Source: Clostridiales bacterium (GTDB lineage: Bacteria > Bacillota > Clostridia > Christensenellales > UBA1242). From it: DNA of 64,000 nt. The notes beneath the pieces were generated by a model. The model saw only the letters and a program-made list of their open reading frames with translations. It did no database searches and was not told the origin of the DNA. Both the position numbers and the translations under genes were made by a program. The stretch covers positions 139,538 to 203,537 of the forward strand of contig CAKJYJ010000005.1 in the NCBI GenBank assembly GCA_918262735.1, read 5' to 3'. Numbering within the stretch: the stretch's first letter is position 1; each line of letters begins with the position of its first letter. Of this stretch, positions 5,850-64,000 are shown piece after piece.

Positions 5850-5889
5850 TTTAATAAAAAATAAAGAGTAGATTTTATTTCTACTCTTT
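5850..5889 (-). terminator. Rho-independent terminator of nrdDG
   Basis: Stem AAAGAGTAG / CTACTCTTT (9 bp, 5863-5871 / 5881-5889), followed on the minus strand by a T-rich run. It sits 25 nt after the nrdG stop. Confidence 0.75.
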
Positions 5890-5913
5890 AATTCATATTT
5901 CAATTATTTTATA

Positions 5914-6459
5914 CTAATAACCGCAAGAACAACCAGTCCAGCTGTTTTCTATTCTTTCATCGCCAGAATCATTATCTCTAACAAATAACTTACCCTCTTT
6001 AAGCGATTTCTTAGCTAAAATTAATCTTTGATTACTGCTACCTTTCCACTTTAGTCCCAGTTCTTTCATTGATGGTATAAATGGGCCATCAACCAAAACA
6101 TCAACATATTTTAACCCTTCCAAATCTTTAATTTGCTCAAAAGTATAGCCGGTATAGCACCAAATTGTTTTATTTGGATATCTTTTATGTATTTCTTGCA
6201 TTAATGCAAAAACTTCATCTCTATTTCCCGGAAACAATGGATCGCCGCCACTAAAAGTTATTCCGGAAATATAGTCTTTTTCTAGTTCTGCAAATATCTC
6301 TTCTTTTGCATCATTATCAAATGGTATTCCGCCATTGCAGTCCCAAGTTTCTGGGTTTTGACAATCCTTGCATTTATGATTACAACCAGCAAGCCAAAGC
6401 ACAACCCTAAGACCATCGCCATTAAGCATATCAACCTTAGTAATGTTATGATAATTCAT
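5914..6459 (-). CDS. nrdG: Anaerobic ribonucleoside-triphosphate reductase activating protein (radical SAM)
   Basis: N-terminal DMLNGDGLRVVLWLAGCNHKCKDCQNPETWD (CxxxCxxC cluster). It sits immediately downstream of nrdD. Confidence 0.92.
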   Translation of the reverse strand: MNYHNITKVDMLNGDGLRVVLWLAGCNHKCKDCQNPETWDCNGGIPFDNDAKEEIFAELEKDYISGITFSGGDPLFPGNRDEVFALMQEIHKRYPNKTIWCYTGYTFEQIKDLEGLKYVDVLVDGPFIPSMKELGLKWKGSSNQRLILAKKSLKEGKLFVRDNDSGDERIENSWTGCSCGY

Positions 6460-38655: not shown

Positions 38656-38967
38656 TTATAATATGATGTTGATATCAACACCAGCTGGTAAATCTAATTT
38701 TTCAAATGAATCTATTGCCTTTGAAGAAGTTGGATAAATATCAATCATTCTTTGGTGGGTTCTAGATTCAAATTGTTCACGACTATCTTTGTGCTTATGT
38801 GGTGAGCGGATAACAGTTACAACTTCCTTTTTTGTTGGAAGTGCAATTGGCCCAACAACCTTTGCACCATTCTTTTCTGCAGTGCCAATTATTTTTTTAA
38901 CAGCACCGTCTAAAAGAACGTGGTCGTAAGATTTTACTTTGATTCTGATTTTTTGCTTTGTTGCCAT
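38656..38967 (-). CDS. rpsJ: 30S ribosomal protein S10
   Basis: [15 protein letters not shown]...[16 protein letters not shown]. Confidence 0.97.
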
Positions 38968-39265
38968 ATTTTTCTATATCCTCCTGTTTATACTTGCCAA
39001 TCGATGCGCTAAAATTGTTTTCAAAACACTATGCCGTGTGTTTACAGTACTACGCACAATAAAAAAGAGCAAATTGATTTACGAGCAAAAACATTTTACA
39101 TAAATCCTTAACTCTTTTTTGATGCCACATCTAAGAACTTGGATAGATGCACCACCAAAAGCGCCACAATTGGTCGCCCCGGTCTTGTCGGGACTTGTCC
39201 ACACAAATTCTCTTAAGCTGTTTGCTAGCCAAAGTAACCTTGTGTTTCAACCCAATATCCGTAGT
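38968..39265 (-). ncRNA. Long (~300 nt) 5' leader of the S10 operon with a G+C-rich structured core; class unknown
   Basis: A strong promoter sits about 300 nt upstream of rpsJ, with no convincing second promoter in between. The core at 39121-39260 is about 48% G+C against about 20% just upstream. A visible hairpin is GUCCCG-ACAAGAC-CGGGGC. Further arms include ACCAA/UUGGU and CAUCUA/UAGAUG. Confidence 0.45.
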
Positions 39266-39271
39266 CTGCCA

Positions 39272-39301
39272 ATAATACCACATTTAACAAGTCATTGTCA
39301 A
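39272..39301 (-). promoter_or_regulatory. Strong sigma-70-type promoter of the S10 operon/leader
   Basis: Minus strand reads TTGACA (39301-39296), an 18-nt spacer, then TGGTATTAT (extended -10, TATTAT at 39277-39272). Confidence 0.7.
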
Positions 39302-39488
39302 CACTTATTTTAACATTTTTAGAAAAATTTTACAAATATGCACAAACCCTCACTTTTGTATCTTTTTTTCAACACACATCAATAAAGCAATAGCTATACA
39401 AAAACTGTTAAATATATATTATGATAATTTATTATAGTAATAATTATATATAATATATAGGCTTTTTATATAATTGTATTGTCTTGTA

Positions 39489-39519
39489 TAAAAAAAACAT
39501 CCAGCAAATGCTAGATGTT
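39489..39519 (-). terminator. Rho-independent terminator of the LRR protein gene (looks bidirectional)
   Basis: 10-bp stem with one mismatch, AACATCCAGC / GCTAGATGTT, with loop AAAT, followed on the minus strand by eight T. It starts 8 nt after the stop at 39527. Confidence 0.8.
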
Positions 39520-39526
39520 TTTGTTT

Positions 39527-42500
39527 TTAATCATTTAGTAATGCCAAATAATCTTCCAAACCTTTATCCCATGTGACCTTTACTTTGTTATATCTCGCAT
39601 AGTTATTCCAGTATGTTTGCCAGCCACTTGGTTTACTGCTAGCATCTGCAACATCTGTATATATCGTTAGTGTGCTTGAACAGCCATAAAATGGTGAATA
39701 AGAATAACTTGATGCAGAAATGGTCGTTACTGTACTTGGAATATATATGCTTGTTAACCCGCTGCAACCAGAGAATGCATTGTTTCCTATGCTTGTTACA
39801 CTGCTTGGAATGGTTACGCTTGTTAACCCACTGCAACTATCGAATGCAGAGCTTCCTATACTTGTTATGTTGCTTGGAATTGTTACGCTGGTTAGTCCAG
39901 TGCAACCATAAAAAGCACGTGCCTTTATTTCTGTTATTGTGTTTGGTATAGTAAGTTCGGTTACTTCTTCCTCCCCTATATATAAATGATGAGCGTAATA
40001 TAGTGGGTTAGCACAAACGCCTCCAAATGATATCTTTAACCAATCTTCTATACTTGAGGTTACAACCCTTGTTAGCCCACTGCAACCCCTAAATGCATCA
40101 TCTCCTATGCTTGTTACACTGCTTGGAATTGTTACGCTTGTTAACCCGCTGCAATAATAGAATGCACATTCCCTTATTTTTGTTGTATTGCTATTTAATT
40201 CAACTTGAGTTATAGATTTATCCGCAAGCCCAACAACATAATAACTATTTTCATTTTCTTTATAGTAAATAATACCTTCAATGGTGGATAATTTGCTTTC
40301 TGTATTTTTATCTGTATAAATATCCTCGGCATAATAAGCAACTGCACCACAATTGTACAAATTATGTTTGTTTACTTTTAAATCTGACAAATTATATATT
40401 TCCGTCAACATATAACAGCCAGTAAATGCGTAACTACCTATTTCGGTAACATGTTTTGGAATAGTGAATGAGGTTAAGCTACGACAATTTGAAAATGCAT
40501 AGCCTCCTATTGTTTCTAGCTGTGAATCGCCCTCAAATGTAACACTTAGCATATTAGAACAATATTCAAACGCGGCCTGACCTATAGTTTTAACACTGCT
40601 TGGTATTATTAGGTTAAACTCACCCATATAGTTGGCGAATACATATGGTTTAATTTCTGTAACTTCTGGCATTCTTATATCATTTATAAGCTCAATGCCA
40701 TTTAAAAATATATGAGTTGCATAGTATAATGGATTTGCCCTATCACAAGTTTGTATTTCAAATGATATAGACACCCAACTTTCTAGACTTGAAATCATAA
40801 CATTTGTCAGTTTTAAACAACCGTCAAATGCAGCGTCTCCAATTTCTGTTACACTATTTGGAATTGTTATATTAACAAGTTCCCCACAATGGCTTAAGGC
40901 TCTTGAGCCTATGCTTGTTACGCCATTTGGCACTTCAAAACTTGTGATTTTTGAACAGCCACTAAATACGAAATTACCTATACTTTTTAAACTAGAATTA
41001 TTTTCAAATGTTACTTCGGTTAATTCATCGCATCCATAAAAAGCACCCTCACCAATACCCGTTACACTTTTTGGTATTAGTAACCCAGTTATACATTTAC
41101 AATTATAGAATGCGTAATTTTTTATTTCAGTAACCGAATTTGGAATTACTAATTCAGTTATCTCCTGATTGCCCACATAGAAATGGTTTGCGACACTTAA
41201 CGGATTAGATTCGTATGTTGCAAAATTAATGTTTAGCCACGCTTCAAGGCTTGACACAACAACCTTATCTATGTTTGTCAACCCACTAAACACATAACTA
41301 TTTATTTTAGTCGTATTGTTTGGTATAACAATTTCAGTTATTTTATTTTCACCAATATACAACTCTCCGGTATAACAAAGAGGATTAGATCTGTACTCGC
41401 CAAATGATATTTTTAACCACCCTTCTAAAGTTGGAGTTGTGACTTTTTGTAAACCATTGCAAAAATCAAATGCGCACGAGCCGACAGTTATAACACTGCT
41501 AGGTATTACTATTTCTTGTAGGCTTGAGCAGTTACTAAATGCGCCATATCCTATATCTGTTAAAGAATTTGGTAATGAAACGCTCACCAATTCTCCACAG
41601 CGACTAAATGCATTTTGGTAGATAACCCTACAATGATCTTTTATTTCATACTGCGTGATCTCTTTATTAGTTAAACTATATAATACAACATATGGATTAT
41701 TAGTATTACCTAAATAATTTACATCAATATCTGAATTTGTGGTTAAATTACCGCAACCTTCAAAAGCGTTATAACCTATAGTTTCTATGCTATCAGGTAT
41801 TTTAATGCTTGTGAGAGATGTACACCTATTAAATGCATAAGCTCCTATTGTGGTTAAGCCATTTTGTATTTCAATGGTAGTTAAAGATTCGCATCTACTG
41901 AAGGCATTTTCAACAATCTCTGTTATTCCCTCACATAATATAATTGACTGAATATTTGTTCCTTTAAAAAGCTTACCAACTATTTTGTTTTCAGTTCCTG
42001 GAATAACTGAAATTTTCGCACTTAAAACAGAATCTAGCACTAAAGAGTTCATGTTTGTTAATGAACAAGGTATAGTTATTTCCTCAATATTGTTAAGCCC
42101 AGCAAGCGCATTTGACCCCGCAGTTGTTATTGTGCTTGGAAGTGTTAGTGTGGTTATTGCATCACAGCCGGCAAACACATAATTGCCAAGCGTGGTTAAG
42201 CCAGCTGGTAGTTCTGGTAATATTAATTTTTTACACCCACTAAACAATCTGCTTGGAAGTTCGGTAACCCCAGTTGGAATGTTTACACTTGTTAAATTTG
42301 CACAATCTTGAAATAAGTTTGAGCCAAATGTTGTTATTGTTTGTGGAATGGTTAAACTTGTTAGCGAACTACATTTAGAAAACATATATCCACCAAGCGT
42401 TGTTAAACCTTTACCTATTGTTACTTTATTTAGTTTTGTACATTCGGTAAACAGGTTTGTTCCTGCTGTGGTAACACTATCTGGAATTGATATTTTTGTA

Positions 42501-43378
42501 AGTGATGTACACTTTTGGAATAGTTTGTTGCCAAGTGTTGTTACCGTTTCTGGAATGTTTATGCTTGCAAGATTAGAACATCCTTCAAACGCACTGTTGC
42601 CCAAACTTTTTATTGTGTATGGAACCTCCACCTTGGTTAGCCTTGTGTTGTTTTTAAATGCATTTTGGTCTATTCCTATTATTGTGTAGGTTCTTCCATC
42701 TTTTATTACCTGCATTGGAATTGTTAATTCTGTGTCGGTTGAGGTGGTTGAAAGCCCTGTTATTACCGCAGTGCCGTTATCTTGGTTGTATTTAAAAATT
42801 AAATCTGTGGTTGTAACCAAACCAGACTCTGCTTCCGGATTGTTTCTTAACCTAACCTCATACCTATACTTTATATTTGTTGAAACATCATGTTCTTTTC
42901 TAAACTTTACTGTAAATATAGTTTCTTTTTCTTCTTCATTTCCTGCTTGAAGAAAAACAATTTTACCACTCGTGTATTCTTCACCATTGTTGTATATTGT
43001 TTTTGTAACATTGCTTATTTCCTCGCCATTATCAACTAAAAAAACATACAATGGTTCATTGTTGTAGTTATTTACAGTTATGGTAATGGTGATTTCATCA
43101 CCCTCGCCAAACTCTAGGTTTGTTTCCCAAGACGAAACATCCTCATCTGTTGGTGATGTTCCATTAGAATATGTAAGTTCATTAAAAGTTACCACATTGG
43201 CACTGCCAGAAACACTGCCAGTGACTTTTGCATTAATATTTTCATCTGTTTTAAAAGATATGCCACTTTTGCTTGTGGCAACTTTTGGAACAAAAAACAA
43301 AATACCAACAACGCCTATTAATATTATTACACTTATTCCTATTAACAGCTTTAGTTTAAATTTCATAATTTTCTCCAA
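39527..43378 (-). CDS. BspA-type leucine-rich-repeat (LRR_5-like) surface protein, N-terminally anchored, 1283 aa
   Basis: N-terminal TM segment LLIGISVIILIGVVGILFFV. More than 40 copies by eye of the roughly 23-aa unit IPxSVTxIGxxAFxxCxxLTSV. C-terminal ...PFYGCSSTLTIY...GWQTYWN. Confidence 0.85.
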   Translation of the reverse strand: MEKIMKFKLKLLIGISVIILIGVVGILFFVPKVATSKSGISFKTDENINAKVTGSVSGSANVVTFNELTYSNGTSPTDEDVSSWETNLEFGEGDEITITITVNNYNNEPLYVFLVDNGEEISNVTKTIYNNGEEYTSGKIVFLQAGNEEEKETIFTVKFRKEHDVSTNIKYRYEVRLRNNPEAESGLVTTTDLIFKYNQDNGTAVITGLSTTSTDTELTIPMQVIKDGRTYTIIGIDQNAFKNNTRLTKVEVPYTIKSLGNSAFEGCSNLASINIPETVTTLGNKLFQKCTSLTKISIPDSVTTAGTNLFTECTKLNKVTIGKGLTTLGGYMFSKCSSLTSLTIPQTITTFGSNLFQDCANLTSVNIPTGVTELPSRLFSGCKKLILPELPAGLTTLGNYVFAGCDAITTLTLPSTITTAGSNALAGLNNIEEITIPCSLTNMNSLVLDSVLSAKISVIPGTENKIVGKLFKGTNIQSIILCEGITEIVENAFSRCESLTTIEIQNGLTTIGAYAFNRCTSLTSIKIPDSIETIGYNAFEGCGNLTTNSDIDVNYLGNTNNPYVVLYSLTNKEITQYEIKDHCRVIYQNAFSRCGELVSVSLPNSLTDIGYGAFSNCSSLQEIVIPSSVITVGSCAFDFCNGLQKVTTPTLEGWLKISFGEYRSNPLCYTGELYIGENKITEIVIPNNTTKINSYVFSGLTNIDKVVVSSLEAWLNINFATYESNPLSVANHFYVGNQEITELVIPNSVTEIKNYAFYNCKCITGLLIPKSVTGIGEGAFYGCDELTEVTFENNSSLKSIGNFVFSGCSKITSFEVPNGVTSIGSRALSHCGELVNITIPNSVTEIGDAAFDGCLKLTNVMISSLESWVSISFEIQTCDRANPLYYATHIFLNGIELINDIRMPEVTEIKPYVFANYMGEFNLIIPSSVKTIGQAAFEYCSNMLSVTFEGDSQLETIGGYAFSNCRSLTSFTIPKHVTEIGSYAFTGCYMLTEIYNLSDLKVNKHNLYNCGAVAYYAEDIYTDKNTESKLSTIEGIIYYKENENSYYVVGLADKSITQVELNSNTTKIRECAFYYCSGLTSVTIPSSVTSIGDDAFRGCSGLTRVVTSSIEDWLKISFGGVCANPLYYAHHLYIGEEEVTELTIPNTITEIKARAFYGCTGLTSVTIPSNITSIGSSAFDSCSGLTSVTIPSSVTSIGNNAFSGCSGLTSIYIPSTVTTISASSYSYSPFYGCSSTLTIYTDVADASSKPSGWQTYWNNYARYNKVKVTWDKGLEDYLALLND
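39750..39956 (-). repeat. Best-conserved tandem 69-nt (23-codon) LRR units at the 3' end of the LRR gene
   Basis: Units begin at 39750, 39819 and 39888 (CTTGTTAACCCGCTGCAACC... / CTTGTTAACCCACTGCAACT... / CTGGTTAGTCCAGTGCAACC...). A closely related pair occurs near 40070-40200. These repeats explain the stack of spurious antisense ORFs at 39639-39951. Confidence 0.7.
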
Positions 43379-43415
43379 TTATTTTTATTTTTTACAATAT
43401 ACCAATAAACACAAT

Positions 43416-43439
43416 AATGCACATAGTGGTATGTGCATT
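43416..43439 (-). terminator. Perfect 10-bp hairpin after the lipoprotein gene (probable terminator)
   Basis: AATGCACATA-GTGG-TATGTGCATT, 12 nt after the stop at 43452. The downstream tract on the minus strand (ATTGTGTTTATT) is only moderately T-rich. Confidence 0.55.
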
Positions 43440-43451
43440 ATCGTTTATTAA

Positions 43452-44447
43452 TTATTCTTCAACTGATTCGTTGTGAAGCCATGAGTAACCATCAAGTCTA
43501 TCGGCACTCAAGCGGAAACTAAAGATTGATGCAATACCCCCTTCACTATTTAAGTAATCTGTTAAAACTTCCAACTGATCAGCATCCATATCTTCTGCTA
43601 TATTTAAATACACATACAAATATCTTGATGCTCCTGGAGCAATTGTAAAGAATGTTGGTTCCGCTGCTACTTCATCGCTCGCCCCCCAATCTTCTAAAAC
43701 ACTTTTGTTGTCAATAACTAAACTATCGGCAGAGTTTTCGGATGTTGCTTCCATAAACATGTACTCAGGATGGGACCAATAAAAATCGTCTTGTGACTCG
43801 CTAACCATCTTTTTTACAGCCTCAGAATCTAAAGATTCATAGAGTTCTCTAATTTCAAATAAACCTTCTTCATCTTCTGTGAAACCCAAATCGTCATCGT
43901 CATACATTGCTTGAATGTCTTGAACATCTTTTTCATTGTTAGTAATATGGTATAATGCATATTCAGGGACCATCTCTCCAACAACAATCATTGCGTCGCC
44001 AGTTTCAGCGTCTGTTTCAATTGAAACACTACTATTTATTAAATTAATTAAATAGTATAGTGGATCTTCTGTGTTGTTTGTTATTTTAAACTCCAAAACT
44101 GCTGTGCTTGCTGTGCTAAGATCTGCAACCGCATCAAAATTTATTTCATCAAGTGGGGTTAAAACATTGCTTATTCCTGTTTCGGCATCTGTTCCAAATT
44201 CATCATAGCCAACTTTCTTTTCCCCATCTTCTGTGGTTGCGTACTCCCAATCATTACCATCTAATGAATATCTAAATGAAAATTCTATATTATATGTTTC
44301 TTCTTGCTCTGCTGGTGAGATTACTTGACCACCATTATCTATTACCGTGTTGTTTGGGTTTGTTTCACCGCAACCAGCAAATGTTACGCCTGTTACAGCA
44401 AGCATAAATGCTAACATTATTCCTAATATTTTTTTCCTTAAATTCAT
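43452..44447 (-). CDS. Acidic lipoprotein of unknown function (331 aa)
   Basis: Signal peptide with lipobox: MNLRKKILGIMLAFMLAVTGVTFAGCG. The mature part is rich in D/E. I recognise no catalytic motif. Confidence 0.75.
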   Translation of the reverse strand: MNLRKKILGIMLAFMLAVTGVTFAGCGETNPNNTVIDNGGQVISPAEQEETYNIEFSFRYSLDGNDWEYATTEDGEKKVGYDEFGTDAETGISNVLTPLDEINFDAVADLSTASTAVLEFKITNNTEDPLYYLINLINSSVSIETDAETGDAMIVVGEMVPEYALYHITNNEKDVQDIQAMYDDDDLGFTEDEEGLFEIRELYESLDSEAVKKMVSESQDDFYWSHPEYMFMEATSENSADSLVIDNKSVLEDWGASDEVAAEPTFFTIAPGASRYLYVYLNIAEDMDADQLEVLTDYLNSEGGIASIFSFRLSADRLDGYSWLHNESVEE

Positions 44448-44579
44448 TTGTTTTTATTCCTCCCTTTTTACATATATTTTTTCACATCTTGGCTTTTAGT
44501 TTACCCTCATTGTAATTAATATCGTATTATACCCGTTTTGTCAAGCAAATTTAGATAGTTGGTAAAAGTTTTATTTCCT

Positions 44580-56500: not shown

Positions 56501-59500
56501 CACTGTTAACACTAACGTCTTTTGCACCAGTAAATGCCTCGTCATTTTTTGTTAGTGTGTAATATGTGGTAATTAACTCATCAAACACATAAACATCAAT
56601 GTTTTGAGTTGTTGAATTATAAACCTTGCTTGTAACAAGCCTAATATCTGTTTCGGCAAATGATTTTTTTGTGATGATTATTGTTCCATCAATAATTAAT
56701 TCTAGGTTTGTTAATTCAACTGCAAGTTTTCCAACCCTAGCATCTAATGAAACAATTTCCAATTTTTGTGGACCATAGGTTCCTGCATCAGCTTCCTGTG
56801 TTTCAATTATAATATTGCTAAGGGTTACCGCCTCGTCGCTAACGCTTTCAATTGTTACCCTTGCTTTTTGACCAGTATATTCTTGAGAAGTTTCAGCAAA
56901 ACTTATTGTCATTTGTCGTTTAACAATAGTACCGCTAACATCATTGCCCTCTTTTGAAATTGGGAAGTTATAACTTGCTGAAATAACATCTAGCCCCGTT
57001 ATGCTTACAATTGTTGCCCCAACTTCTGTTGAACTATATTTAACAAGCACTGATGTTCCAATAAGTTCGCTATATGGCGTGTCGGTATTTTTTAGAATGT
57101 ATACCATTTCATTGGTTCCATCATATACCTTATTCATTGTTCCGCCAATTAAAACCGCATCTTTTGCTATTGAAATTCTGTAAGTTGTTGTTGAGTTCGT
57201 TACATCGCAAATAATGCTTGATAAAGATACCCCTGCACTAATTTGATATTCAATAACATCTGTGAGTGCAAAGTTAAATTTATAGAACCCTGAGTCAGAG
57301 TAGTTTTTAACGGTAAGTGTTGAAACCCCCGAAACTTCATTTGTGTCAGGGTCAGTGACTCGTGCGTTTACTGTTGTTCCATTAAGGCTTGTGATATATG
57401 TGCCATTTTCTGCCAAACAATACAACCATTCATAGTTATAGGTTAGGCTTGGATTGGTTGCGTAATTAACGGTTGCAATAAGGTTATATGATGCGTTTTC
57501 ATCATATATTTCTTCAACATCTTCACCCGTTGTTTCAACGGTTGCTGTGTAGCTCCAAACAGCATAGAATGTTATGTCTCTTTTAATGTTCCATACCGAA
57601 CCATTGGTAAATAGTGTTGCTGTGTCACCACTATCGTAATAATACCAACCAACGAATTCAAGACCAGTTCTTTCTGGAACCGGAGCCGTGAATGCAACTG
57701 CTTGTGTTGCAATTTGGGATGCGTCATATGTGTCATGCGTTTCACCGTCAACGTATCCATATTCAAAACTAACTTCACTCTTATTTGTTAATAATAGTTC
57801 AAGAGTATACTCAAAAGTTGCATCTGGTACAACTGTTATTACATAAGAGTAAACATTTCCACTTGTGCCAGATAGTTCAAAGGTTGTTTCTGCACCACTT
57901 GTGCAGGTTGCAGATTTTAACCAGAAATTAGCGTTTATGTAATTTACATCAACATCAAACACAAGTTTTCCTGCGTTAACGATGGTGTTGATGAGCAGGT
58001 TATAATCGTCAATAGAAACAATTTTGTCCTCTGAATCTATTGTCGCAACTTCTTCAATGTCGCCATCATTAGTTTTAACGGTTACTCTAATTGAACGAAC
58101 ATCACCTTCTGGTTCTGGAAGAACAATAGAAGATTCATCAAAATCGAATGCAAAATTGTTCTGTTCGTTCTCGTTTTGTGTTAATGCTATATCTTCCAGT
58201 TTGTAAACTCTGCTTTCTAAAGCTCCAATATAAACATCTATGTCAGCCGCCAAGCTGTTTTTATTATAGGTTTTGTAACCATTAACATCGTTTAGTTTAA
58301 TGCTAAATGCAACAGTTCTTTGCCCACCAGTAATCATTTTTAGTCTGGTTTTGATAAATGTTGCCACATCGGATTGATTGTCAAAACTGTATGTTAAACC
58401 ATAGTAATCTTGTGTTATTACAAGTTCTCCATTTGAGAAGTATCCATCAAGCAATGTTATGTTTCTTGTTGGATTAATAAGGACGTTTCCTGTTAGTTTT
58501 AACTTAATAATATATGGCGTTATTGCTCCCTTTACTGAAGGTTCTGGAACGGTGTAACAACTCTTTAATTCATCAGAGCCTGTAATGTTATAAACCAAAT
58601 CAATACTGTTTGAAACATTAATTCCACCATAGGTTGCAACCACCTTGTAGGCATCTTTATCAACGTCTAAAATGTTATCTGAAATAGACTGTTTTACTTT
58701 GTTTGTACCATCATACATCTTTGTTACAGTGTCATCAAACTCCAACCCAATTGGAATAATGTTTATATCTGACACGTTTGCCACGTTTCCGCCAGCAATT
58801 TGAGAAACTTGCGTGTGCGCTAAAGTGTTTAACAAGTAGTATTCACTGCTTACATCATCTTCATCTGATTCTTGATAAACATAATCAAAAACAACGTAGA
58901 AGCTACCAGAATCTAAAGAATATTTTAATGATGTTGCGTAAACGTTAACAACATTATTAACTGTGTCAACCTTAAACTCTAAATCACCATCAAACTCTTC
59001 AAATTCGTCAGCACTATTTGCTTTGTAATATACTGTTATATTATCTGTGTATGACGCATTGCCGTTTACATCAATACCATTTATATCTTGAATCCAAGAG
59101 AACGTTGCAATAAGACCATCATAACCAATATAGTCGCCATCATAGGTCACTGAAACACTGCTTTTTGTTATGGTAACATCATCAATATTCCAGTATGCAT
59201 AAAATTTAATTGGGCTTGAATTTGCATCATCAACATCAGTGATGAATGTGCTTGTTTCTCTATCAACAACATAATTACCGTTTGAACTCTTTAGATAAAT
59301 TATGTATTTAGGGTTACCAGAGTCATCTTTTATTTCAGAACCCCAGTAGGCAAATGTATATCCCGTTCTGGTTGGAATAATATTGTTTACTTGATAATTG
59401 TTTCTATTAAACGTTACGTAATAATCGGTTGGGTTATTTTGAAGGCTTGTTTTTTGAGCATTTGTAAGATACGTTCCATCAAGGTCTAGTAATATTTTGG

Positions 59501-62500
59501 CTGGAACGGTTATCGCTTCAATCTCGTATTCCTCAGATTCATTATAACCACCAAATGATTCTGGGGTCCAGTCATTATATGCGTATTCATCATGTACAAA
59601 ATCATATTCACAAAGCACAACGCTTGGATCATCTTTTTTAACCCACTTGTAAATAATTTTTCCGGTTTCGGCATATTGATTGCTGATGTAACCAAGAGTT
59701 TTGTTATTTCCATACTTTTTGCCGCTTATTTTATTGTAGGTTGACCAATCAATAACCCCATCTCTCTCTGGATAAACACCATTTAATTCTCCGTAACCGT
59801 ATTTAACAACTGTTGATGCAACTGTGGCATTATCAATAATGAATAATAGGGTTACATCATTACCTTCAAAGTTAGGAACAAGGGTTTCGCTATATGAAAC
59901 GCTTGATCCATCATCACTATGACCAAATGTTTCTGGCAATAAAATATCATTTACTTTTGAAGTTTTTTGAATTGGTGGTACATCTCGATATACTATATGG
60001 CCACCGCCACTCCCCTCAACTCCTTGAAAAACATAAAGTTTAGATAGTGTGTAACCTTCTGTTTGAGCAAAAGCATATTCACCAATAACGTCCCATATTG
60101 TTATATTTTCAAAATCTTCGCCATATCTGATGTACATATCTAACGTTTCATCATCGGCATGTACATTTATTGGGTCTTTGGTGAATGTTAATGAGTATAC
60201 AATTGGATTATAATAACTTTCAACATAAAGTTTTGGAACGGCAGCTCCGGAGCCGGCATTAAACGTTATGTTAATATAATTAATCACACAATCCACACCC
60301 GAGCCAAAATTGTCGTATGGCATTGCAGAAACTGCACCAAGGTTTTCTGAACTTGCTCCGTTTTTATCAATAAAGTACATCTCGCTAAAACGATAACCTA
60401 TAATTTCTTCTGCACTTATTCCTGTTGAATCGTAATACGTGTCTGTTTTATCACCATAATTAATATTGGCAGTTTCCTCCGTCCCAGGAACATAATATTT
60501 ATTAACGAGTTGATATGTTAGTTCCAAAGGAATAAATGTTATTTGCGCGTTGACTGTTTCTTCTGGACAAGCAATAATTACATCATCGCCATCCATAGCT
60601 CCAACAAGACCACCATCAATAAGGTCGGTTAGCCCAACACCACTGGTTGAAGCCCCAGCAATACTAACATCGTCGGGGTTATATAGATAAATATAGTCAT
60701 TTGAACCTATGCCGTATGTGAGTTTTTTAGGAACAATTGTAAATGTATTATTATTTGCTCCAGTTTTAACCTTAAACTCAACATAACCACCCTTTAGGCT
60801 ATTAGTTTTAACTGTTGGTGTTTGTATTTTAGATACTGAAGTGAATGTGAAGTATTGTTTTTGGTCTGCCGAATCTCCACTTTGCGTGTGATAATTAACA
60901 CCAATTGAGTAAACATATGGAATGTACTCCGTGTAAACATAAATATCATAGCCTTCGCTTTTGTATGCAAGATTTGTTAGACTAATGGTAATGATAGAAC
61001 CATCAATAACCTTATTCCCGCTATTGGTTTTTGAATATTGTACTGTAACAGATATCGCCCCTCCATCACCACTAGTTTGATAAATGTTTCGAGCAATATT
61101 GGTTTCTTCAAGTGATGAAGAAATATTCAAACCATCAACTGGGTTTGTGTTGTTTTCATCGAATAAATAAACCCGTTGACCATTAGAGAATATCTCAATT
61201 CCTGTTATTTTTTTATATGGTAAAACACCTTTGTGAACGCTTATTGTTCTTGTGAAACTTTCTTCCTCACAAAAATATTCTTCATCAACCTTGCCTTGGT
61301 AAATGTTTGTTGTGACCGTGCTGTCGTATATTTTGTTTTCAGATGTATTATCAAATATTTTTATATCGGTTTCTTTCTGTTCAAGTTGAATAATTATTTC
61401 GTACTCTGTTTCACTGTTAATAATGCCACTTATTGTACTAAAGCTAAAATAACTGGCGTCGCCAATTAATTTAAGTGGTCCAAAATTTTCACCTGCACTA
61501 AAGCCATGTATTTCAAAATGCTTGCCAAGATAATCATTTAAAGAAACGTCGCAATAAAAACGTACATCATTTATGTAGTTGTATGTCACATAATCTGGAA
61601 CCACATTAGATGTTTCGCCTTCAAACACAAGCGGATATACCCTTGCTGCACTTATTTGTTGATATTCATTCCCCTTGCCTCTATAACACTTCGCTGTGAT
61701 TACAAAACTATCAATAACATCTTCATTTGATGGTTGTGGAGTAAGTTCATTAAATTTACCATTTTTATCAACAATTCCATAACTTGTTTTAAATTTGAAC
61801 TTAATTGCTTGGTCTTGTAGTCCAATTTCAAGTTGAAGGGTCTGCAACGCTCTAAACGTGAACGCCCTGCCATAGTTTGTGCCAACAACGCTTAAATAAC
61901 CAGAACCATTAACACCGCCAACAACCGTAAGCGCATAAATATTGGTTGTGTTAATTGTTCTATCTCTCGATTCTTCCACATTTAACACATATGCCGTGTT
62001 ATCTGGATTACCACTATCAAAAATTGTTACTTGATATGTTGCTGGAATATTAATGCTGGTTGAGTCGGTATAACAATCAGCACTAACCTTATCAATCACA
62101 TAAGTTCCTGAGCCTTGGTTTGTGACATAAGGATTGGTAAATAATACCTCTAATGAGAGCACATCTTCCACACTGTTACTAATAAAAATTGCGTTCGTCA
62201 TCAAAATCCAGTTTGCATAAAAAGTGTCACCATCATTGGCGTTTGCTAGTATTGCTGGGTATTTATCATCTGTAGCCTCACCTATTTTGAGATTTGTTGT
62301 ATAACTAACAGCATTTCCGCTTGTGTTAAGGTAAGACTTATCAATACAAAGATAAGGAAGATCTTCATCACCAGCTGCTTTACATGCACCCTTAAATGAG
62401 AGATTTAACCCATCGCCGTCATTATTATAGCAACTACTAGCATATATGCTTTCGAATAAATGCGTGTCCCCCATGCTGTTTATGCTACTAGCAGTTAAAC

Positions 62501-64000
62501 ATACAGCACTTAGATAATTTTTAGCATCACTTGCTGGTGCCATTGCAGTTTTGAAGAAAATTTTAGCATCTCCCTTAGTGCTTGAAGAATAGGACGTTAC
62601 AATATAACCGCTTTGAGTTGAGCTCCCAACACCCAACATTCCAGCACCATATGTAACCGACGCATTGTTAATTGTAACCTTGTTGATATTTCGTAGGTAA
62701 ATGTAAATATTCATTGTCAGTTCGCCAGAAGCATTCTGAGTAACAACAAAGTATTTTGTATCTTCTTCTTGTGTATCGGGTACAACTAATACGGGTACAA
62801 TCTTATTTTTTGTGTCAGCAGAACTCCATTGTTTATTACTTGTTGTGGCATTAGTTACAAACATTTTTGAGGCACGGTCAGGTTTTGCTAGCACTATTTT
62901 GCTACCAAGTGTGGCGTAATAATTCTCTGAAATTCCCGTTATTTCAACTGCAAGCATAGGATTATCTGTCAAAACATATTTTCCATTAATATTCTCATAT
63001 GCACCGCCAATGTCACTTATACTTGTTTGGTTTGTCAACTTTTGACCATTAAAAGCGTAAGCGAATTTATTAACTTGAACCTTTCTTTCTGCAACGGTAA
63101 CTTCAATTTTTATTGCTGTTTGATTGGCATATTTTGCGGTTATTGAACCACTACTATTATCAACCGAACAACTAAAACCACTTTGACCATTAGTTAAGAT
63201 AAGTTTAAAATCATTTCTTTTTGAACATGCTGAAGAGGTTGTTGCAGCAAAATCAGACTCGCATGCAACCCAACTCATTGTTGAATTATTATATATGTAT
63301 TGCTTTACCGTTAGTGATGTTATTGTGTATTTATTAACACCGTTCTCTGTCTTATTGTATGCTAAACTTGCGTTTTTCCAATTGGTGTTGTCTGAAGTCG
63401 TCTGTCCTAATATTTTCCAATTATCACTACTTGTGATTTTTTTTGCTGTGTCGTATTTAACCTGGTAAGTTACCTTATTATTTTCATCCGTAAATGCTAT
63501 TTCGTTATTCCCATCTTTATAGGTGACCCCTTCAGGGAAGGTTGCCTCAACTTCAACATAAACATTGTTTGTTCCAATATATGAACCATCTTTTTTTTGT
63601 GTATCACCACCTTTCAGAGTACCATCGCTTTCGCAGTGAACGGTGGTAATACCACTTGGGGATTTATAAATTGGACCGCCAATGCTTGCACAGTTTGTTA
63701 TTGTTGTGGATGATAAACTACTATAAACAATATTTGCATCAGTTCCAACACAGTCTTTAACAATTAAATTGTCAATCAATGCCCCGTGTGTGCATGCAAA
63801 AAGAGCCTTTGAACTATAACTTTGGCTGGAGTCAAATGTAACACCTTTTATTATGTGCCCATTGCCGTAAAATTTTCCCTTAAAAGCAGTAGTTCCGCTT
63901 CCAATTGGAATCCATAGTTTTGAAGAAAGGTCAATATCGGCAGTAACATTAAATGTGATCCCAGAAAAGCCTGAATTGGAATCACAGTTAACCGCTATCC
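44580..64000 (-). CDS. Giant cell-surface protein (at least 6472 aa within the window; N-terminus beyond the right edge) with Flg_new-type repeats, YDG(T)/MBG-like repeats, InlB-B-repeat-like modules, a C-terminal TM anchor and an acidic cytoplasmic tail
   Basis: Single stop-free frame from 63998 down to the TAG at 44580-44582. The track start at 63779 is a TTG, and I translated the 73 codons above it with no stop. Motifs include GYTFAYWGSE, GLEFVGWYYYD, GYSFVGWSLTQGG and GYIFVGWTLDN, plus many KVYDGT signatures. Confidence 0.9.
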   Translation of the reverse strand, partial: IAVNCDSNSGFSGITFNVTADIDLSSKLWIPIGSGTTAFKGKFYGNGHIIKGVTFDSSQSYSSKALFACTHGALIDNLIVKDCVGTDANIVYSSLSSTTITNCASIGGPIYKSPSGITTVHCESDGTLKGGDTQKKDGSYIGTNNVYVEVEATFPEGVTYKDGNNEIAFTDENNKVTYQVKYDTAKKITSSDNWKILGQTTSDNTNWKNASLAYNKTENGVNKYTITSLTVKQYIYNNSTMSWVACESDFAATTSSACSKRNDFKLILTNGQSGFSCSVDNSSGSITAKYANQTAIKIEVTVAERKVQVNKFAYAFNGQKLTNQTSISDIGGAYENINGKYVLTDNPMLAVEITGISENYYATLGSKIVLAKPDRASKMFVTNATTSNKQWSSADTKNKIVPVLVVPDTQEEDTKYFVVTQNASGELTMNIYIYLRNINKVTINNASVTYGAGMLGVGSSTQSGYIVTSYSSSTKGDAKIFFKTAMAPASDAKNYLSAVCLTASSINSMGDTHLFESIYASSCYNNDGDGLNLSFKGACKAAGDEDLPYLCIDKSYLNTSGNAVSYTTNLKIGEATDDKYPAILANANDGDTFYANWILMTNAIFISNSVEDVLSLEVLFTNPYVTNQGSGTYVIDKVSADCYTDSTSINIPATYQVTIFDSGNPDNTAYVLNVEESRDRTINTTNIYALTVVGGVNGSGYLSVVGTNYGRAFTFRALQTLQLEIGLQDQAIKFKFKTSYGIVDKNGKFNELTPQPSNEDVIDSFVITAKCYRGKGNEYQQISAARVYPLVFEGETSNVVPDYVTYNYINDVRFYCDVSLNDYLGKHFEIHGFSAGENFGPLKLIGDASYFSFSTISGIINSETEYEIIIQLEQKETDIKIFDNTSENKIYDSTVTTNIYQGKVDEEYFCEEESFTRTISVHKGVLPYKKITGIEIFSNGQRVYLFDENNTNPVDGLNISSSLEETNIARNIYQTSGDGGAISVTVQYSKTNSGNKVIDGSIITISLTNLAYKSEGYDIYVYTEYIPYVYSIGVNYHTQSGDSADQKQYFTFTSVSKIQTPTVKTNSLKGGYVEFKVKTGANNNTFTIVPKKLTYGIGSNDYIYLYNPDDVSIAGASTSGVGLTDLIDGGLVGAMDGDDVIIACPEETVNAQITFIPLELTYQLVNKYYVPGTEETANINYGDKTDTYYDSTGISAEEIIGYRFSEMYFIDKNGASSENLGAVSAMPYDNFGSGVDCVINYINITFNAGSGAAVPKLYVESYYNPIVYSLTFTKDPINVHADDETLDMYIRYGEDFENITIWDVIGEYAFAQTEGYTLSKLYVFQGVEGSGGGHIVYRDVPPIQKTSKVNDILLPETFGHSDDGSSVSYSETLVPNFEGNDVTLLFIIDNATVASTVVKYGYGELNGVYPERDGVIDWSTYNKISGKKYGNNKTLGYISNQYAETGKIIYKWVKKDDPSVVLCEYDFVHDEYAYNDWTPESFGGYNESEEYEIEAITVPAKILLDLDGTYLTNAQKTSLQNNPTDYYVTFNRNNYQVNNIIPTRTGYTFAYWGSEIKDDSGNPKYIIYLKSSNGNYVVDRETSTFITDVDDANSSPIKFYAYWNIDDVTITKSSVSVTYDGDYIGYDGLIATFSWIQDINGIDVNGNASYTDNITVYYKANSADEFEEFDGDLEFKVDTVNNVVNVYATSLKYSLDSGSFYVVFDYVYQESDEDDVSSEYYLLNTLAHTQVSQIAGGNVANVSDINIIPIGLEFDDTVTKMYDGTNKVKQSISDNILDVDKDAYKVVATYGGINVSNSIDLVYNITGSDELKSCYTVPEPSVKGAITPYIIKLKLTGNVLINPTRNITLLDGYFSNGELVITQDYYGLTYSFDNQSDVATFIKTRLKMITGGQRTVAFSIKLNDVNGYKTYNKNSLAADIDVYIGALESRVYKLEDIALTQNENEQNNFAFDFDESSIVLPEPEGDVRSIRVTVKTNDGDIEEVATIDSEDKIVSIDDYNLLINTIVNAGKLVFDVDVNYINANFWLKSATCTSGAETTFELSGTSGNVYSYVITVVPDATFEYTLELLLTNKSEVSFEYGYVDGETHDTYDASQIATQAVAFTAPVPERTGLEFVGWYYYDSGDTATLFTNGSVWNIKRDITFYAVWSYTATVETTGEDVEEIYDENASYNLIATVNYATNPSLTYNYEWLYCLAENGTYITSLNGTTVNARVTDPDTNEVSGVSTLTVKNYSDSGFYKFNFALTDVIEYQISAGVSLSSIICDVTNSTTTYRISIAKDAVLIGGTMNKVYDGTNEMVYILKNTDTPYSELIGTSVLVKYSSTEVGATIVSITGLDVISASYNFPISKEGNDVSGTIVKRQMTISFAETSQEYTGQKARVTIESVSDEAVTLSNIIIETQEADAGTYGPQKLEIVSLDARVGKLAVELTNLELIIDGTIIITKKSFAETDIRLVTSKVYNSTTQNIDVYVFDELITTYYTLTKNDEAFTGAKDVSVNSGITFELNYPNYNTYTLTGVSFEITPFNAYVDIIATPLTKVYDGTVNYFGVSGVPFTFTSGSRIYTDSSKSQEVTGAFATEIKNSLDIKFEDKNAGNNIGLSIETSSDNFVITQNPELSGSITKKQTAISLKETYTKIYDGKSIEFAYSLLQANGAVNGETITSGEGLTLPLTFAINAGTYNLANAVGYTYDLVMSDDNSISTNYEITGLIGTITISRADVDFVPTTEYTYTAQVITPVWTATRDHDNENITDLFEITATENPVNVGTYSCTVSIKAEHSGNYNFTSSTFTVTVVAKEVTIVVNASKFFDGKKLRVNIEDNSILCFGDTFYNSYVESAGEYRWEYVLNSNDLQIGHVNKSITVKNKDGEIATTNYSFRYNVRLVINEAELTSSNVLVIGKYTYNGSVQTLRIKVLGNEFQIVDGTYEYAFNEATLDARIYRTVGESTLSPASFKYANIYTVKIRLKGSDGSNCSNEYSFNVEMEKIVITQVSLTKNKVYDGTYAVDGTVTSSDIVPDDTNNIKLSGAYTSKDVGESIAIIITFNNYRGDLSATNYELLVGSYVLDANLNIIGKISKRTVTFTYNNSSLYYTGAQLTLNVADFSNIANALDVEPFGGSVTFKNVVNAGTYSLVSEEIRNDLTVASSLNNYTLVFAGSVTIKKAEVYVSVVSDNVYTYDAESHDVVLTATASNGAINPDEARMILGQTYKTTTSGANVTPINYGQYYIYPKVNDAYVSNYKYIGNEYLTDKLTINQRTATLDIQVSLLYNSNNTTGYEYPFSASDLTNIVRGHILGGKISISPANYIETTYEYKTGGTMNNEIEIQNFSLTDADTNNVIGNYNIEYNIEIVISSTSGANVIIENLTYNATERINGVSIVAEYMNSGTIQTETITLNNQGTNVTIVGFYANNEDARDNTNALTSIKNAGEYYARVEFDASLNLPQSIYYTRFNVLPKTITLNTLTANGVPFTGSKVYDDSEEIVLDSSDIYASDKTSVQVLGTYYNGNTPVKTYGTGYTIALEIVDSNNLGNYILTTASRQGSISQRTLTITGITNNTMNYSGNVVIELKTSDSRFIYSSGDLVTGHVLSGNVKVTVGDVGDYLVANGENNLVITSGGFDVTSNYVITFDVGAKLTVNTAPVNLTWTAGNLTYNAKDRLQDIKNAIIATPGVVGGYTAGVSQDMTISFVGGAVEVKDADTYTVNGITSSSGNYAYTILSPISITIIKQDITVNLGVHEELYKIYKSTYLSTGYGLKYEMFTGLLPDDRASIELGTYNLISSIINNNEYRVDTEYLIENNKIAMTCPVIVKNYNITNQQGGIKLVHEELVFEEITPFTYNAQDHIDELVINFTYEGGASGVITKNNTTYGSIKNVAGVQLINAGDYVITVIVDSAEYNVNVKINKVQITSVSYDKDKVYDGTNEVKYSGNTSLPSAQLVQNDDVVLTATYEDYKAVDVNQTITFILSGTSAGNYIAPQNTTGKITPKSLILGFGNISFTYDANNQYTKTYTGSVLTLATNDSITQNTVKLSFRDNNVKTFAVSDTNTTLGLSEFEIKHNGTDVVTGCYEISVMANVTINAKEFSIVFDEFADDITTFSASQKIVTFDISGLDGTEKQQIMGAVRIDYKQYANGAKISGAPVNAGKYIASAVYFGSTNYSMVGASDYVFEIIPYVYNATAGQINSFSKEYATKDPELVQNFATTIGGSNYSFKVQYVREAGEDLGSYNYTSATSLNGNIDFRTTSEMLNNKFTIVKNVSNVVVISLQSFINITDSTRYYGLKNIGRFTLSQFTFTTLLKEETLNNNIINSASSRIVFNTGNVGEYPISASECSIVSDYFTNFNIQSGANVKLTIAPRTLQVSSTTLNNGYDKVYDGTNEFKHGLSYNFNSVPAEGELDSTDIANLGQVIVNVTYDKAIAGNRTILVTCASRNFNPQMKVTFGTINKLEVNVTVGDVNVIYGDSIQNAIDLAYSVEYYDDLITKDLTLNQLKAEVTVSASGSDTVTNLSSAGKTKVGNYQIVASPKDENGNGGNVIIKNTITSRVIVGKKGVAVSVTPRISRVQSENNSVDLSQYTITIDGVISPDVVSVASASYDNEYIGINKVVSFTLSGADSNNYSAGDVLGDILQKTITFNYNYSYTGCPVGISDILEGSRRITSADYDYYKSVNEHNVNSLPQPSYKDKGYSFVGWSLTQGGNIIDPNARISTYITNYSASVNLYAVWSINSFKVNVYLAVYSLATNGYDTLGVKVGNSADTKQYRTEISFDSALNDIRYNGVDSGVILNYPNQTVFANHHFIGYGVNNIVNLFTTTAHTLVDDVSIYVVYALDEYTVTINANQGVFSKPNQLVTYNNNVGTISLMYGQKLQDVVGSALNVENLLAVTRLGYSLTTWKLNNESKTVNYIANYEVQNDTSLVAEWEANKYWLTLNSMSGQYTLNEVNIENGWAYVNERHESIKIQISYDGEVPRLINAQKNYYTFLGYTFENGSDYEKPETWTTADNLEIFAKYSDFEYTLQINTIHTDITIDVKDANGTALRLQNQSNETGVYAFNVLTSYKVIVTSTPNAGYTFFKYTMAQGQGTRTENVYYFNGFSGENNSVLELTAESKANANTIELISNVDAAGYVQVQITDNNVTSTYRSGTNDNAFTLLTDETCTVTVVVNRGYELKSIKVMGTGSIVKVANTDNEYTFKEFTSNATIFAEYEAKDLTITIRNNTTYGIYQYDGFDVLAESNSITKKTGTDLTIVVIPNHGYTLNEEAFETTALDGVFAVTENNGKFTVVLSGFTTNGEFTLPYIKENYTATIKYAEANEVLGTISPVSVVGNIATVAKIGDGNALVDEATVAFGGTYVAEYLTRISIQTLFEKTGYELSAYKLYVNGEYVEIGSVDSNNNLAFDLEDDCEIFIIFERSTYDVVFKVQNSKYASVKQGNGAKHDSISTKVRFERNSLATSIVLSDANKYEIVGWYIENQDGTLSQEPITTESTIPAQLITGNTTYVAVTRGLEVSVKVLVVGTNLYEVVSNADLINFASIVDGPDHVTITELEKITAGDGTYTVSIKISYRVDDTFTIELAPEFYYEALVNGRRTSDLQFTLTNLSPDDYSLANPYYINLVLKRYNVTVSTNEVNAISPYINNDSSVGVSDDSVIRTGNEVFADINVRYGGTVTLHIDVNRGYTYVGQSSEQGSVFDISNDNYTLSNVERPTEMQLNYETTKYKVIFNTNHDEGIDDAQYTYYIRHDRSTFTDVDENEVTLPQEVTSPEFTYNGLIRGFSGWSISRDFGLINKSYLFDEEGRIYQMVDGVAVYGFTGGTISDTTVENGFVVINLYGTWYNPDYKLTIELLPTNLEDSVDFDIGIYFEPAFGFEAVYIENTGIVDYFNVAQNLVVKMQNTPDFDGYIFVGWTLDNETDLRTSAISFSMLPQDMVLKLHYGFRVSVAVEEILEGINNASVNNQTDVICMTGDEVTLVATAGEGFEFSHWLMNGVELDPELYPSTFTTNVYDATIYTAVFVGKTVAIQFVDGQKVTTHVDGETTSVGQTIKIYVDVETDVEYGYELQAITVSNETSKTLTELKTDGNGTYYEYYVTQADGELGYIRINSVVNAKDVIVRFVINYEGSTVVVVNNVDVTNQAQTYSYNQHITINNRIAPRYAMGTITINGVEQETNELLSIYLTQERGFSITEENIIEFNLQRLFWLTDAVEFAGDGTEDSPFLIGTAEELAYLAQIINNGELDQSEKQYYFQVVANIDLTNKFWVPIGTEENPFGGVFNLGHFRIYGTYHAEEYEVLSWNAYCYGVFGYITEDAKIITSTTAIQAAIIIGSVILGIAIIAGTVIFIIARKKKKKLQKHANNVSVDGVAAEDEYVDEESGEVYDDEPQDDGEYEDDSYDGEGEEEWQDEGEYEESDEPVEDDEMTNEDYMEQIDEKAKELDNVETPEAPKAFDVAEFVKNLSNENKLQPKQDSTSLKPTTRPKPPAPPKRPKT
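44583..45014 (-). other. Predicted cytoplasmic tail of the giant protein (144 aa: basic stop-transfer, poly-acidic block, Pro/Lys-rich end)
   Basis: RKKKKKLQKH..., then AEDEYVDEESGEVYDDEPQDDGEYEDDSYDGEGEEEWQDEGEYEESDEPVEDDE, ending ...KPTTRPKPPAPPKRPKT. Confidence 0.7.
45015..45095 (-). other. Single C-terminal transmembrane helix of the giant protein
   Basis: AIQAAIIIGSVILGIAIIAGTVIFIIA (27 hydrophobic residues) followed immediately by RKKKKK. Confidence 0.8.
50890..58722 (-). repeat. Protein-level array of divergent YDG(T)-signature (MBG-like) domains inside the giant CDS
   Basis: KVYDGT or close variants are encoded at about 50890, 52250, 53580, 55000, 56085, 56375, 57115 and 58702. Degenerate [FL]TY[DN][AG] variants are interspersed. 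The copies are not identical at the DNA level. Confidence 0.6.

Follow-up and report, generated by a model that had tools for sequence, protein, structure and literature searches.

Do the three surface-protein genes that lie upstream of the S10 ribosomal protein operon in a bacterium of the Christensenellales form one island, or do they share a site by separate routes of inheritance? The question was raised by a 64,000-nucleotide (nt) stretch of Clostridiales bacterium DNA (lineage UBA1242; GenBank assembly GCA_918262735.1, contig CAKJYJ010000005.1, positions 139,538 to 203,537), which is called the window here and whose own numbering is used. Christensenellales are heritable, health-associated gut bacteria. 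An initial annotation, made from the letters of the window, read the genes as one adhesion island whose three anchoring modes suggest a layered apparatus, placed beside the most highly expressed operon of the chromosome. Comparison with conspecific contigs and with relatives led us to a different reading: immediately before the S10 promoter there is probably a variable slot for surface-protein genes, composite in that it holds two independently inherited units, a giant gene and a two-gene cassette.

As shown in the open reading frame (ORF) map, three consecutive, co-oriented genes occupied the block 39527-64000 on the minus strand upstream of the S10 promoter, as had been annotated. They encode a BspA-type leucine-rich repeat (LRR) protein, a lipoprotein of 331 amino acids (aa) and a giant ORF running past the window edge. 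The gene rpsJ was located at 38656-38967, downstream of all three. The genes and signals of the block are as follows.

39272-39301, minus strand: S10 operon promoter, TTGACA-18-TATTAT plus extended TG; the variable region has its proximal border here.
39489-39519, minus strand: intrinsic terminator for the LRR gene (-16 kcal/mol, z -6.8) with U8 after it; insulates the S10 promoter.
39527-43378, minus strand: BspA-type LRR_5 protein with an N-terminal signal anchor, 1,283 aa from a TTG start.
43411-43444, minus strand: hairpin separating the lipoprotein gene from the LRR gene (-22 kcal/mol, z -5.3); its U tract is weaker.
43452-44447, minus strand: acidic lipoprotein, 331 aa, with a signal peptide and an FAGC lipobox.
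44448-44579, minus strand: 132-nt gap between the giant and lipoprotein genes, without a terminator, z -0.33 (it folds no better than shuffled sequence).
44580-64000 and beyond, minus strand: giant surface-protein gene, 6,472 aa visible, 5' end cut by the window edge.

Most of what had been described of this layout was reproduced. Both hairpins were real by their folding energies against shuffled sequences, the one between the lipoprotein and LRR genes being a weak terminator or attenuator that was also kept in a relative (contig L110, below). The gap after the giant gene was unstructured, in agreement with the earlier failure to see a terminator there; it contained a TATAAT box without a good -35 element and a GGGAGG ribosome-binding site. 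Together with an ORF at the left edge, the block brought the predicted surface genes to four, covering 26,680 of 64,000 nt (41.7%; about 42% had been stated). No LPXTG-like motif was found in the four proteins with the regular expression [LNSI]P.[TAS][GNASD], and the anchoring modes proposed for the three block products (N-terminal segment, lipobox, C-terminal helix) were supported, as signals of predicted envelope proteins. The block holds only three ORFs, and we agree that no secretion or glycosylation gene is among them. Two gene models needed correction. The giant gene was present as described but its ORF is truncated, the frame being open to base 64000; the LRR gene likelier starts at ATG 43366, behind a GGAGAA ribosome-binding site, which gives 1,279 aa rather than the 1,283 aa annotated, and the LRR gene of L110 begins in the same way. 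The GC content was 0.34-0.36 throughout the window, and a 19.4-kb frame without a stop at 34% GC cannot have arisen by chance.

The evidence that separates the block into two units came from conspecific metagenome contigs, which were retrieved through the exact S10 protein of the window. On contig L100 (40.8 kb), the giant gene call of 6,586 aa ended 696 nt before rpsJ. In blastn alignments, L100 matched window positions 53884-44646 at 98.9% identity over 9,239 nt without indels, and positions 39327-28655 at 99.2% identity, with about 400 unrelated nt in between. Contig L101 was arranged in the same way: the S10 promoter directly follows the giant gene, and the lipoprotein and LRR genes are absent. 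Four further contigs (L102, L104, L106 and L107) carried L100-type sequence upstream of the promoter, and the cassette was absent from all six informative contigs. The variability that had been suspected of the block was thus found within the species, and it delimits one feature.

39328-44645, minus strand: strain-variable 5.3-kb segment; it takes in the final 22 codons of the giant gene and the gap after them, then the lipoprotein gene, the LRR gene with its terminator and an AT-rich spacer.

The L100 haplotype has a giant gene with its own terminator. An exchange of the segment would have removed this terminator, which would explain why none is seen after the giant gene in the window. The giant protein ends in DSTSLKPTTRPKPPAPPKRPKT in the window and in DNATPKSTSPGVPKPPKPPKKP in L100 and L101. 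The two tail alleles (window 44583-44648; L100:9240-9302) have 22 residues each and a similar Pro/Lys-rich character, and the breakpoint is located within the coding sequence. Contig L110, from another sample and lineage, matched window positions 44466-43258 at 89% identity over the lipoprotein gene, the hairpin and the start of the LRR gene, and its upstream flank was unrelated. The fact that the pair occurs with an unrelated upstream flank indicates that it travels as a unit, independently of the giant gene. A single island that encodes a layered apparatus is therefore not supported; the genes form two separable units.

As in genomic islands and variable antigen loci, presence and absence were polymorphic at a fixed site between conserved genes: the cassette was missing from six of six conspecific contigs, and the giant gene was absent upstream of rpsJ in five congeneric species. 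No integrase and no deviating composition were observed, no repeats were found flanking segment 39328-44645, no tRNA was found in the window and no mobility gene among the three ORFs of the block. Composition gave no sign of a horizontally acquired island. The lack of repeats, tRNAs and mobility genes at the borders fits allelic replacement by homologous recombination, which we infer to be a better description than a mobile island.

To place the site among relatives, the L4 protein was compared. Its closest matches, at 82-88% identity, were in five uncultured gut or rumen Clostridia metagenome-assembled genomes (MAGs), and matches at 53-73% identity were in MAGs labelled Christensenella, Christensenellales, Catabacter or Christensenellaceae. 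These matches point to an uncultured Clostridia bacterium of gut or rumen, probably in the order Christensenellales. The congeneric species L001-L005 have kept the S10 promoter together with its leader of about 300 nt, and homology stopped just upstream of the -35 hexamer, which bears out that the block adjoins the promoter. Upstream of rpsJ were found dnaX-ybaB-recR (L001), recR (L002), recR with two other genes (L003) and small to medium secreted proteins (L004, L005). None of the upstream genes in L001-L005 was related to the three proteins of the window. The synteny comparison proposed in the initial annotation thus confirmed a variable region upstream of rpsJ, but did not find the three genes linked as one island in relatives. 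This outcome comes close to genes that are scattered and unlinked, the pattern that had been named there as contradicting an island.

In the nearest relatives the rpsJ-upstream slot was occupied by a secreted beta-rich family with a shared module of about 190 aa and a signal peptide ending in GVYAA. No Pfam match was found in this family except DUF6273 in the C-terminal part of the L003 member. Its members are located as follows.

L003:2899-4347, secreted beta-rich protein.
L004:1-1401, secreted beta-rich protein.
L005:851-1459, secreted beta-rich protein.
L006:3255-3833, secreted beta-rich protein.
L007:7210-7791, secreted beta-rich protein.
L007:7851-8423, secreted beta-rich protein.

The secreted proteins of L006 and L007 were preceded by two membrane proteins; that these are SipW-type signal peptidases was considered and dropped, as Pfam gave no match.

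The slot was surveyed in 43 Christensenellales-like loci with usable upstream sequence, a sample that is phylogenetically non-independent and has no genome-wide background. The gene directly upstream of rpsJ was predicted to be secreted or surface-exposed in 16 of the 43. In 11 it encoded a large protein on the same strand, of at least 1,000 aa in ten, the eleventh (L038) being an LRR_5 ORF that is cut short at its N-terminus and has at least 696 aa; five further loci had a small to medium secreted protein. In six Christensenella-like species the gene directly upstream of rpsJ, on the same strand, encoded an orthologous lipoprotein of about 1,300 aa whose C-terminal third carries LRR_5; identity between members was 28-54%.

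L016:4616-8536, lipoprotein of about 1,300 aa.
L026:4779-8711, lipoprotein of about 1,300 aa.
L028:4044-7961, lipoprotein of about 1,300 aa.
L033:4740-8594, lipoprotein of about 1,300 aa.
L034:4845-8789, lipoprotein of about 1,300 aa.
L040:4761-8681, lipoprotein of about 1,300 aa.

This group was stable in synteny and fast-diverging in sequence, and L038 probably belongs to it; at the N-terminus of the L016 member a Big_2 match stayed below threshold (22.6 bits, cutoff 22.8). Another giant protein of at least 2,852 aa, unrelated to that of the window, was encoded by L045:1-5145 and L049:2-8560 at 45% identity. In L049 it ended directly upstream of rpsJ and in L045 a 1,104-aa ORF intervened; the L045 copy, the only one scanned, had no Pfam match. 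Further unrelated occupants were a 2,403-aa protein in L010 (LRR_5 and Flg_new) and a 1,746-aa protein in L041 (Flg_new_2). No C-terminal transmembrane (TM) segment was found among these large rpsJ-upstream proteins of relatives. That the slot recurrently hosts large surface-protein genes in the order remains a lead.

The giant gene is the larger of the two units. Its frame had no in-frame stop up to base 64000, as shown by translation of the last 600 nt. About 114 N-terminal residues are missing from the window, since the full call on L100 has 6,586 aa and the visible part 6,472 aa. The following parts were recognised in the protein.

63681-63998, minus strand: N-terminal cap motif, aa 1-106, ...DLSSKLWIPIGSGTTAFKGKFYGNGHIIKGV..., resembling the start of GLUG-type beta-helix domains.
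50598-58778, minus strand: central stalk region, aa 1741-4467, holding eight or more YDG-like modules, each about 120 aa long and strongly divergent.
45996-49973, minus strand: membrane-proximal region, aa ~4676-6001, with InlB B-repeat-like modules (Flg_new, Flg_new_2).
45114-45431, minus strand: juxtamembrane second cap copy (GDGTEDSPFLIGTAEEL...NIDLTNKFWVPIGTEENPFGGVF), similar to the N-terminal motif.
45015-45101, minus strand: single C-terminal TM helix, aa 6300-6328, then KKKKK, from a hydropathy scan.
44583-45014, minus strand: predicted cytoplasmic tail of 144 aa, strongly acidic and rich in Pro/Lys at its end; its final 22 aa vary by haplotype.

The helix at aa 6300-6328 was the only TM-like segment among the 6,472 aa and had a positive-inside signature. 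In a metagenome scan, the cap motif was the sole part of the N-terminal 599 aa that matched other proteins (30-55% identity), and in 5 of 15 matches it stood directly after the signal peptide. Its pattern, W.PIG....F.G.F.GNGH.I, opens GLUG-type beta-helix regions in unrelated metagenome proteins, and a 28-aa stretch was 50% identical between the N-terminal and C-terminal copies. The protein was nearly free of internal sequence repeats. Eight YDG-like copies were recovered by iterative hidden Markov model (HMM) search at 17-39% pairwise identity. Against Pfam, YDG scored 36.5 bits (cutoff 25) and Flg_new_2 63.7 bits (cutoff 23.6), with Flg_new and List_Bact_rpt sub-threshold, and Pfam and NCBIfam searches with the whole protein or with 690-aa pieces returned nothing in the first ~2,000 aa.

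Homologues of the giant were sought in protein clusters, where only the 8,000 candidates with most words in common were scored. The C-terminal 1,200 aa gave one marginal match and no homologue, and residues 1700-2900 no homologue. No relatives were found in the PDB when its sequences were searched with the two cap regions and with the entire protein, and no homologue was detected among the large proteins of the relatives. The giant itself was missing from the collection of 5.8 billion clusters, although its 331-aa neighbour on the same NCBI contig was included. Very long gene products may be underrepresented in that collection, so that negative results for giants are weaker than they look.

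Over the final 3,079 codons of the giant gene, the window and L100 differed by 79 synonymous and 23 non-synonymous changes, a ratio of non-synonymous to synonymous substitution rates (dN/dS) of 0.08; ribosomal genes gave 0.02 in the same comparison. Codon usage correlated with that of the other window genes at r = 0.97 and with that of ribosomal genes at 0.96. Because of this ratio, the matching GC content and the codon usage, the giant is a resident gene under purifying selection, neither a recent import nor a decaying ORF.

The cassette encodes two products of another kind. The lipoprotein starts with MNLRKKILGIMLAFMLAVTGVTFAGC; the Cys of its lipobox was invariant and homologues had a canonical LVGC lipobox, and signal peptide and lipobox together place it among predicted lipoproteins. 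No Pfam or NCBIfam family was found for it. Its family was narrow, with 8 proteins in the 5.8 billion clusters (indexed search) and 5 in 1.84 billion representatives (exhaustive HMMER search). The informative matches were the protein itself, a 328-aa protein at 87% identity and several fusions of about 500 aa, in which the lipoprotein module, at 46-51% identity, is joined to a short LRR_5 domain. The window protein corresponds to the N-terminal module of this lipoprotein-LRR_5 family without the LRR part. It was not found in the GTDB species genomes, among whose representatives the window species is not included. AlphaFold2 on five sequences gave a predicted local distance difference test score (pLDDT) of 49, and Foldseek of that model against PDB returned nothing significant.

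The LRR protein begins with a hydrophobic segment of about 20 aa, and Pfam LRR_5 covered nearly all of it in 9 stretches (E = 1.2e-197, 646 bits, cutoff 27.7); its DNA had a 69-nt periodicity. Matches to the HupY/LrrG model NF047961 were partial (209 bits against a cutoff of 1,250), so that the protein does not qualify as an equivalog, and it scored far under the cutoff of the Gli349 model. A C-terminal tail motif, IYTD...KP..W..WN...W...L.D, was common to the LRR protein, the fusions P0003-5 and the 668-aa protein P0012. Because the fusions join both modules and end in the tail motif of the LRR protein, the two cassette genes are, as judged from domain content, products of one lineage-specific, domain-shuffling LRR_5 surface family. 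Codon usage of both was somewhat less typical (r = 0.86 for the LRR gene and 0.80 for the lipoprotein gene, against other genes), values to be read with the genes being short or repetitive. We also considered whether one domain is common to the lipoprotein, to the LRR protein in its N-terminal domain and to the small secreted proteins of L003-L007, and rejected this as unproven; BLASTP gave E = 1.8 and hhalign probabilities of 26% and 0.3%, with only a short I-x-I-T-V-x-N motif in common.

A possible mode of action can be proposed from these features. The giant would be a type-I membrane protein exported by the Sec pathway, with its signal peptide expected beyond the window edge. Its C-terminal helix would anchor the protein in the membrane, leaving the acidic tail on the cytoplasmic side, and about 6,300 aa would extend through and past the wall, as a GLUG-like head followed by about 6,000 aa of dissimilar beta-rich modules. 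It may thus be a long fibril whose distal head binds host, particle or partner-cell surfaces. The cassette would add a membrane-tethered LRR_5 binding protein and a lipoprotein, and a swap of the cassette between strains could plausibly alter binding specificity. Judging from domain content, adhesion by the proteins of the locus is plausible. The cassette was most likely exchanged by homologous recombination, with one breakpoint inside the giant gene, among its final 22 codons, and the other at the -35 region of the S10 promoter. In the window strain, transcripts of the giant gene probably continue into the lipoprotein gene, and an intrinsic terminator in either haplotype would shield the S10 promoter from upstream transcription.

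Several points speak against parts of this account. The N-terminus of the giant, with its predicted signal peptide, lies outside the window. Pfam GLUG did not match the cap motif, and the label GLUG-like denotes resemblance of the motif. No known adhesive domain was found in the giant by Pfam or NCBIfam. Structure models reached pLDDT values of 46-49 only, the lower one being that of AlphaFold2 on one YDG-like module with the 8 internal copies as alignment, and the putative fibrillar shape of the giant is drawn from composition and weak domain matches. A dN/dS of 0.08 and near-identity between strains are unusual for diversifying host-exposed adhesins. On the side of the haplotypes, L102, L104, L106 and L107 show only 60-250 nt upstream of the promoter, and the event may have been an insertion of the cassette in the window strain or a deletion elsewhere.

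The selection data and the missing adhesive domain lend real weight to what we regard as the main rival, namely that the giant is a structural or shielding envelope protein or spacer that affects envelope properties, cell size or aggregation, by analogy with Ebh of Staphylococcus aureus. The TM domain of Ebh is C-terminal, and Ebh is not known to carry a sortase motif. The topologies are alike, Ebh combining a secretion signal with a TM domain, and its overproduction is reported to block clumping (PMC4856396). A long, conserved acidic cytoplasmic tail and native codon usage also agree with such a role. However, the giant has no sequence similarity to Ebh or to any characterised protein, its distal head motif and its InlB-B-repeat and YDG modules are typical of adhesin-like proteins, and its absence in congeneric species means that the genus does not have it as a core part of its envelope. 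We therefore hold this explanation to be unlikely but worth keeping in view.

The layered island of the initial annotation, read as genes grouped beside the S10 operon for co-expression, and an assembly artefact were given less credit. The island has in its favour that the genes are adjacent and co-oriented, that no terminator separates the giant and lipoprotein genes in the window strain, that all three products are envelope proteins and that the lipoprotein and LRR genes are still paired in a second lineage. It is hard to maintain when conspecific strains keep the giant gene beside rpsJ without the other two, the pair occurs with a different upstream flank, lipoprotein homologues fused to LRR_5 are found elsewhere in the genome, all three genes are missing at this site in congeneric species and terminators part the block from the S10 operon; we consider it improbable. 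It could also be argued that assembly wrongly placed a 5.3-kb segment from a different strain or species between the giant gene and the S10 operon, as the window comes from a metagenome-type contig and its junction was seen in none of the six informative conspecific contigs. Two chimeric joins that restore collinear flanks exactly would then be needed. Moreover, the giant gene stays in frame for 22 codons past the breakpoint and its tail agrees with that of L100 in length and character, GC content is unchanged across the junctions, there is no border repeat to mislead an assembler, and the lipoprotein-LRR pair exists independently in L110. An artefact thus appears very improbable, and a slot with two separately inherited units remains the reading that we prefer.

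The proteins were compared with known surface systems. Like the Gram-positive fibrillar adhesins (PMC8286594), the giant has a very long chain, an N-terminal head motif, a putative stalk of beta-rich modules and a C-terminal anchor. It differs from them in that its modules are near repeat-free, whereas classic stalks are tandem repeats of one family, in that it has no known adhesive Pfam domain and in that a TM helix with a 144-aa acidic tail takes the place of LPXTG. In the survey by Monzon et al. 2021 (PMC8286594), many fibrillar adhesins have no known anchor, and TM regions occur in about 20% of those. With respect to the multiple, commonly tandem stalk domains of that class, the candidate stalk families YDG and Flg_new_2 passed the Pfam cutoffs and about 2,000 N-terminal aa had no match; the C-terminal TM helix is a cell-envelope anchor that is not among the anchor domains listed. 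Formal membership in a class was found for the LRR_5 protein and for the lipoprotein signal only, the giant lacking the adhesive domain by which fibrillar adhesins are defined.

The giant shares megadalton size with the staphylococcal proteins Ebh and Embp but no sequence or domain similarity, with no FIVAR or GA match in Pfam, and Ebh consists of many similar repeats, which the giant does not. Giant1-5 of Apilactobacillus kunkeei are described as extracellular proteins of 3,000-8,000 aa with a predicted N-terminal beta-solenoid head and an elongated body (PMC12863079). They resemble the present case in being giant extracellular proteins of a small Firmicute genome, narrow in taxonomic range and with recombination shaping the locus. 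They differ in having no TM segment, attachment being thought to occur via a C-terminal SH3b-like DUF5776, for which the giant of the window has no match, and in forming a cluster of five rather than a single gene; no homology was detectable. The LRR protein, being almost all LRR_5, is similar to the BspA-type proteins (Tannerella forsythia BspA, Treponema LrrA and streptococcal HupY/LrrG) and differs from them by its N-terminal membrane anchor, a lineage-specific N-terminal domain and its C-terminal tail.

All the kinds of feature found here were known before, namely adhesin-like giants, LRR proteins of the BspA type and surface loci that vary, and no general principle is changed. Two points deserve note: a near-repeat-free giant without homologues under purifying selection, and the recurrent use of the slot upstream of rpsJ. 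At least five occupants appear to be independent, namely the giant of the window, the LRR_5 lipoproteins of about 1,300 aa, the L045/L049 giant and the large proteins of L041 and L010. A wider claim would make the site a lineage-wide preferred docking site for very large, fast-turnover surface genes in the Christensenellales and the giant the founder of a new class; we regard this as doubtful. If it were true, the class would be one of giant, almost repeat-free type-I membrane proteins under strong purifying selection, which would suggest that its conserved function is mechanical or lies in the envelope and that the giant is not simply another adhesin.

No characterised surface structures for the Christensenellales were found in the literature. 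Christensenella is reported to form flocs with methanogens (PMC7002349). The locus provides candidates for interactions, in the form of a giant membrane-anchored protein of the sampled strains and a swappable LRR cassette that may shift binding specificity. A site beside a core ribosomal operon can be a hot spot of surface-gene turnover. Contigs of the species often break here, which has consequences for strain typing and for how MAG assemblies are read.

Three further observations concern neighbouring genes. The fusion P0009 (L081:4984-6486), 47% identical to the lipoprotein, was located directly downstream of hrcA-grpE-dnaK-dnaJ in four contigs (L081-L084), likewise a highly expressed housekeeping operon; such fusions are the nearest full-length homologues of the lipoprotein. 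At the left edge, ORF 3-2411 (minus strand), which runs off the window, encodes an N-terminal TM segment, a papain-family Peptidase_C1 domain and Flg_new repeats, and has the InlB-B-repeat module type in common with the giant protein. The S10 leader at 38968-39268 (minus strand), about 300 nt long and conserved across the genus (L001-L005), appears structured. No Rfam family was found in the window at gathering thresholds, nor at 38900-39600 in a permissive E-value search. RNAalifold gave 41 pairs, 14 of them with compensatory changes such as CCCG/CGGG, CTTG/CAAG and CTAG/CTAG, and the fold is followed by a U-rich stretch and then by a conserved GTAAACACACGGCATAGTGTTT hairpin. It is possible that this leader is an undescribed autoregulatory ribosomal protein leader or an attenuator.

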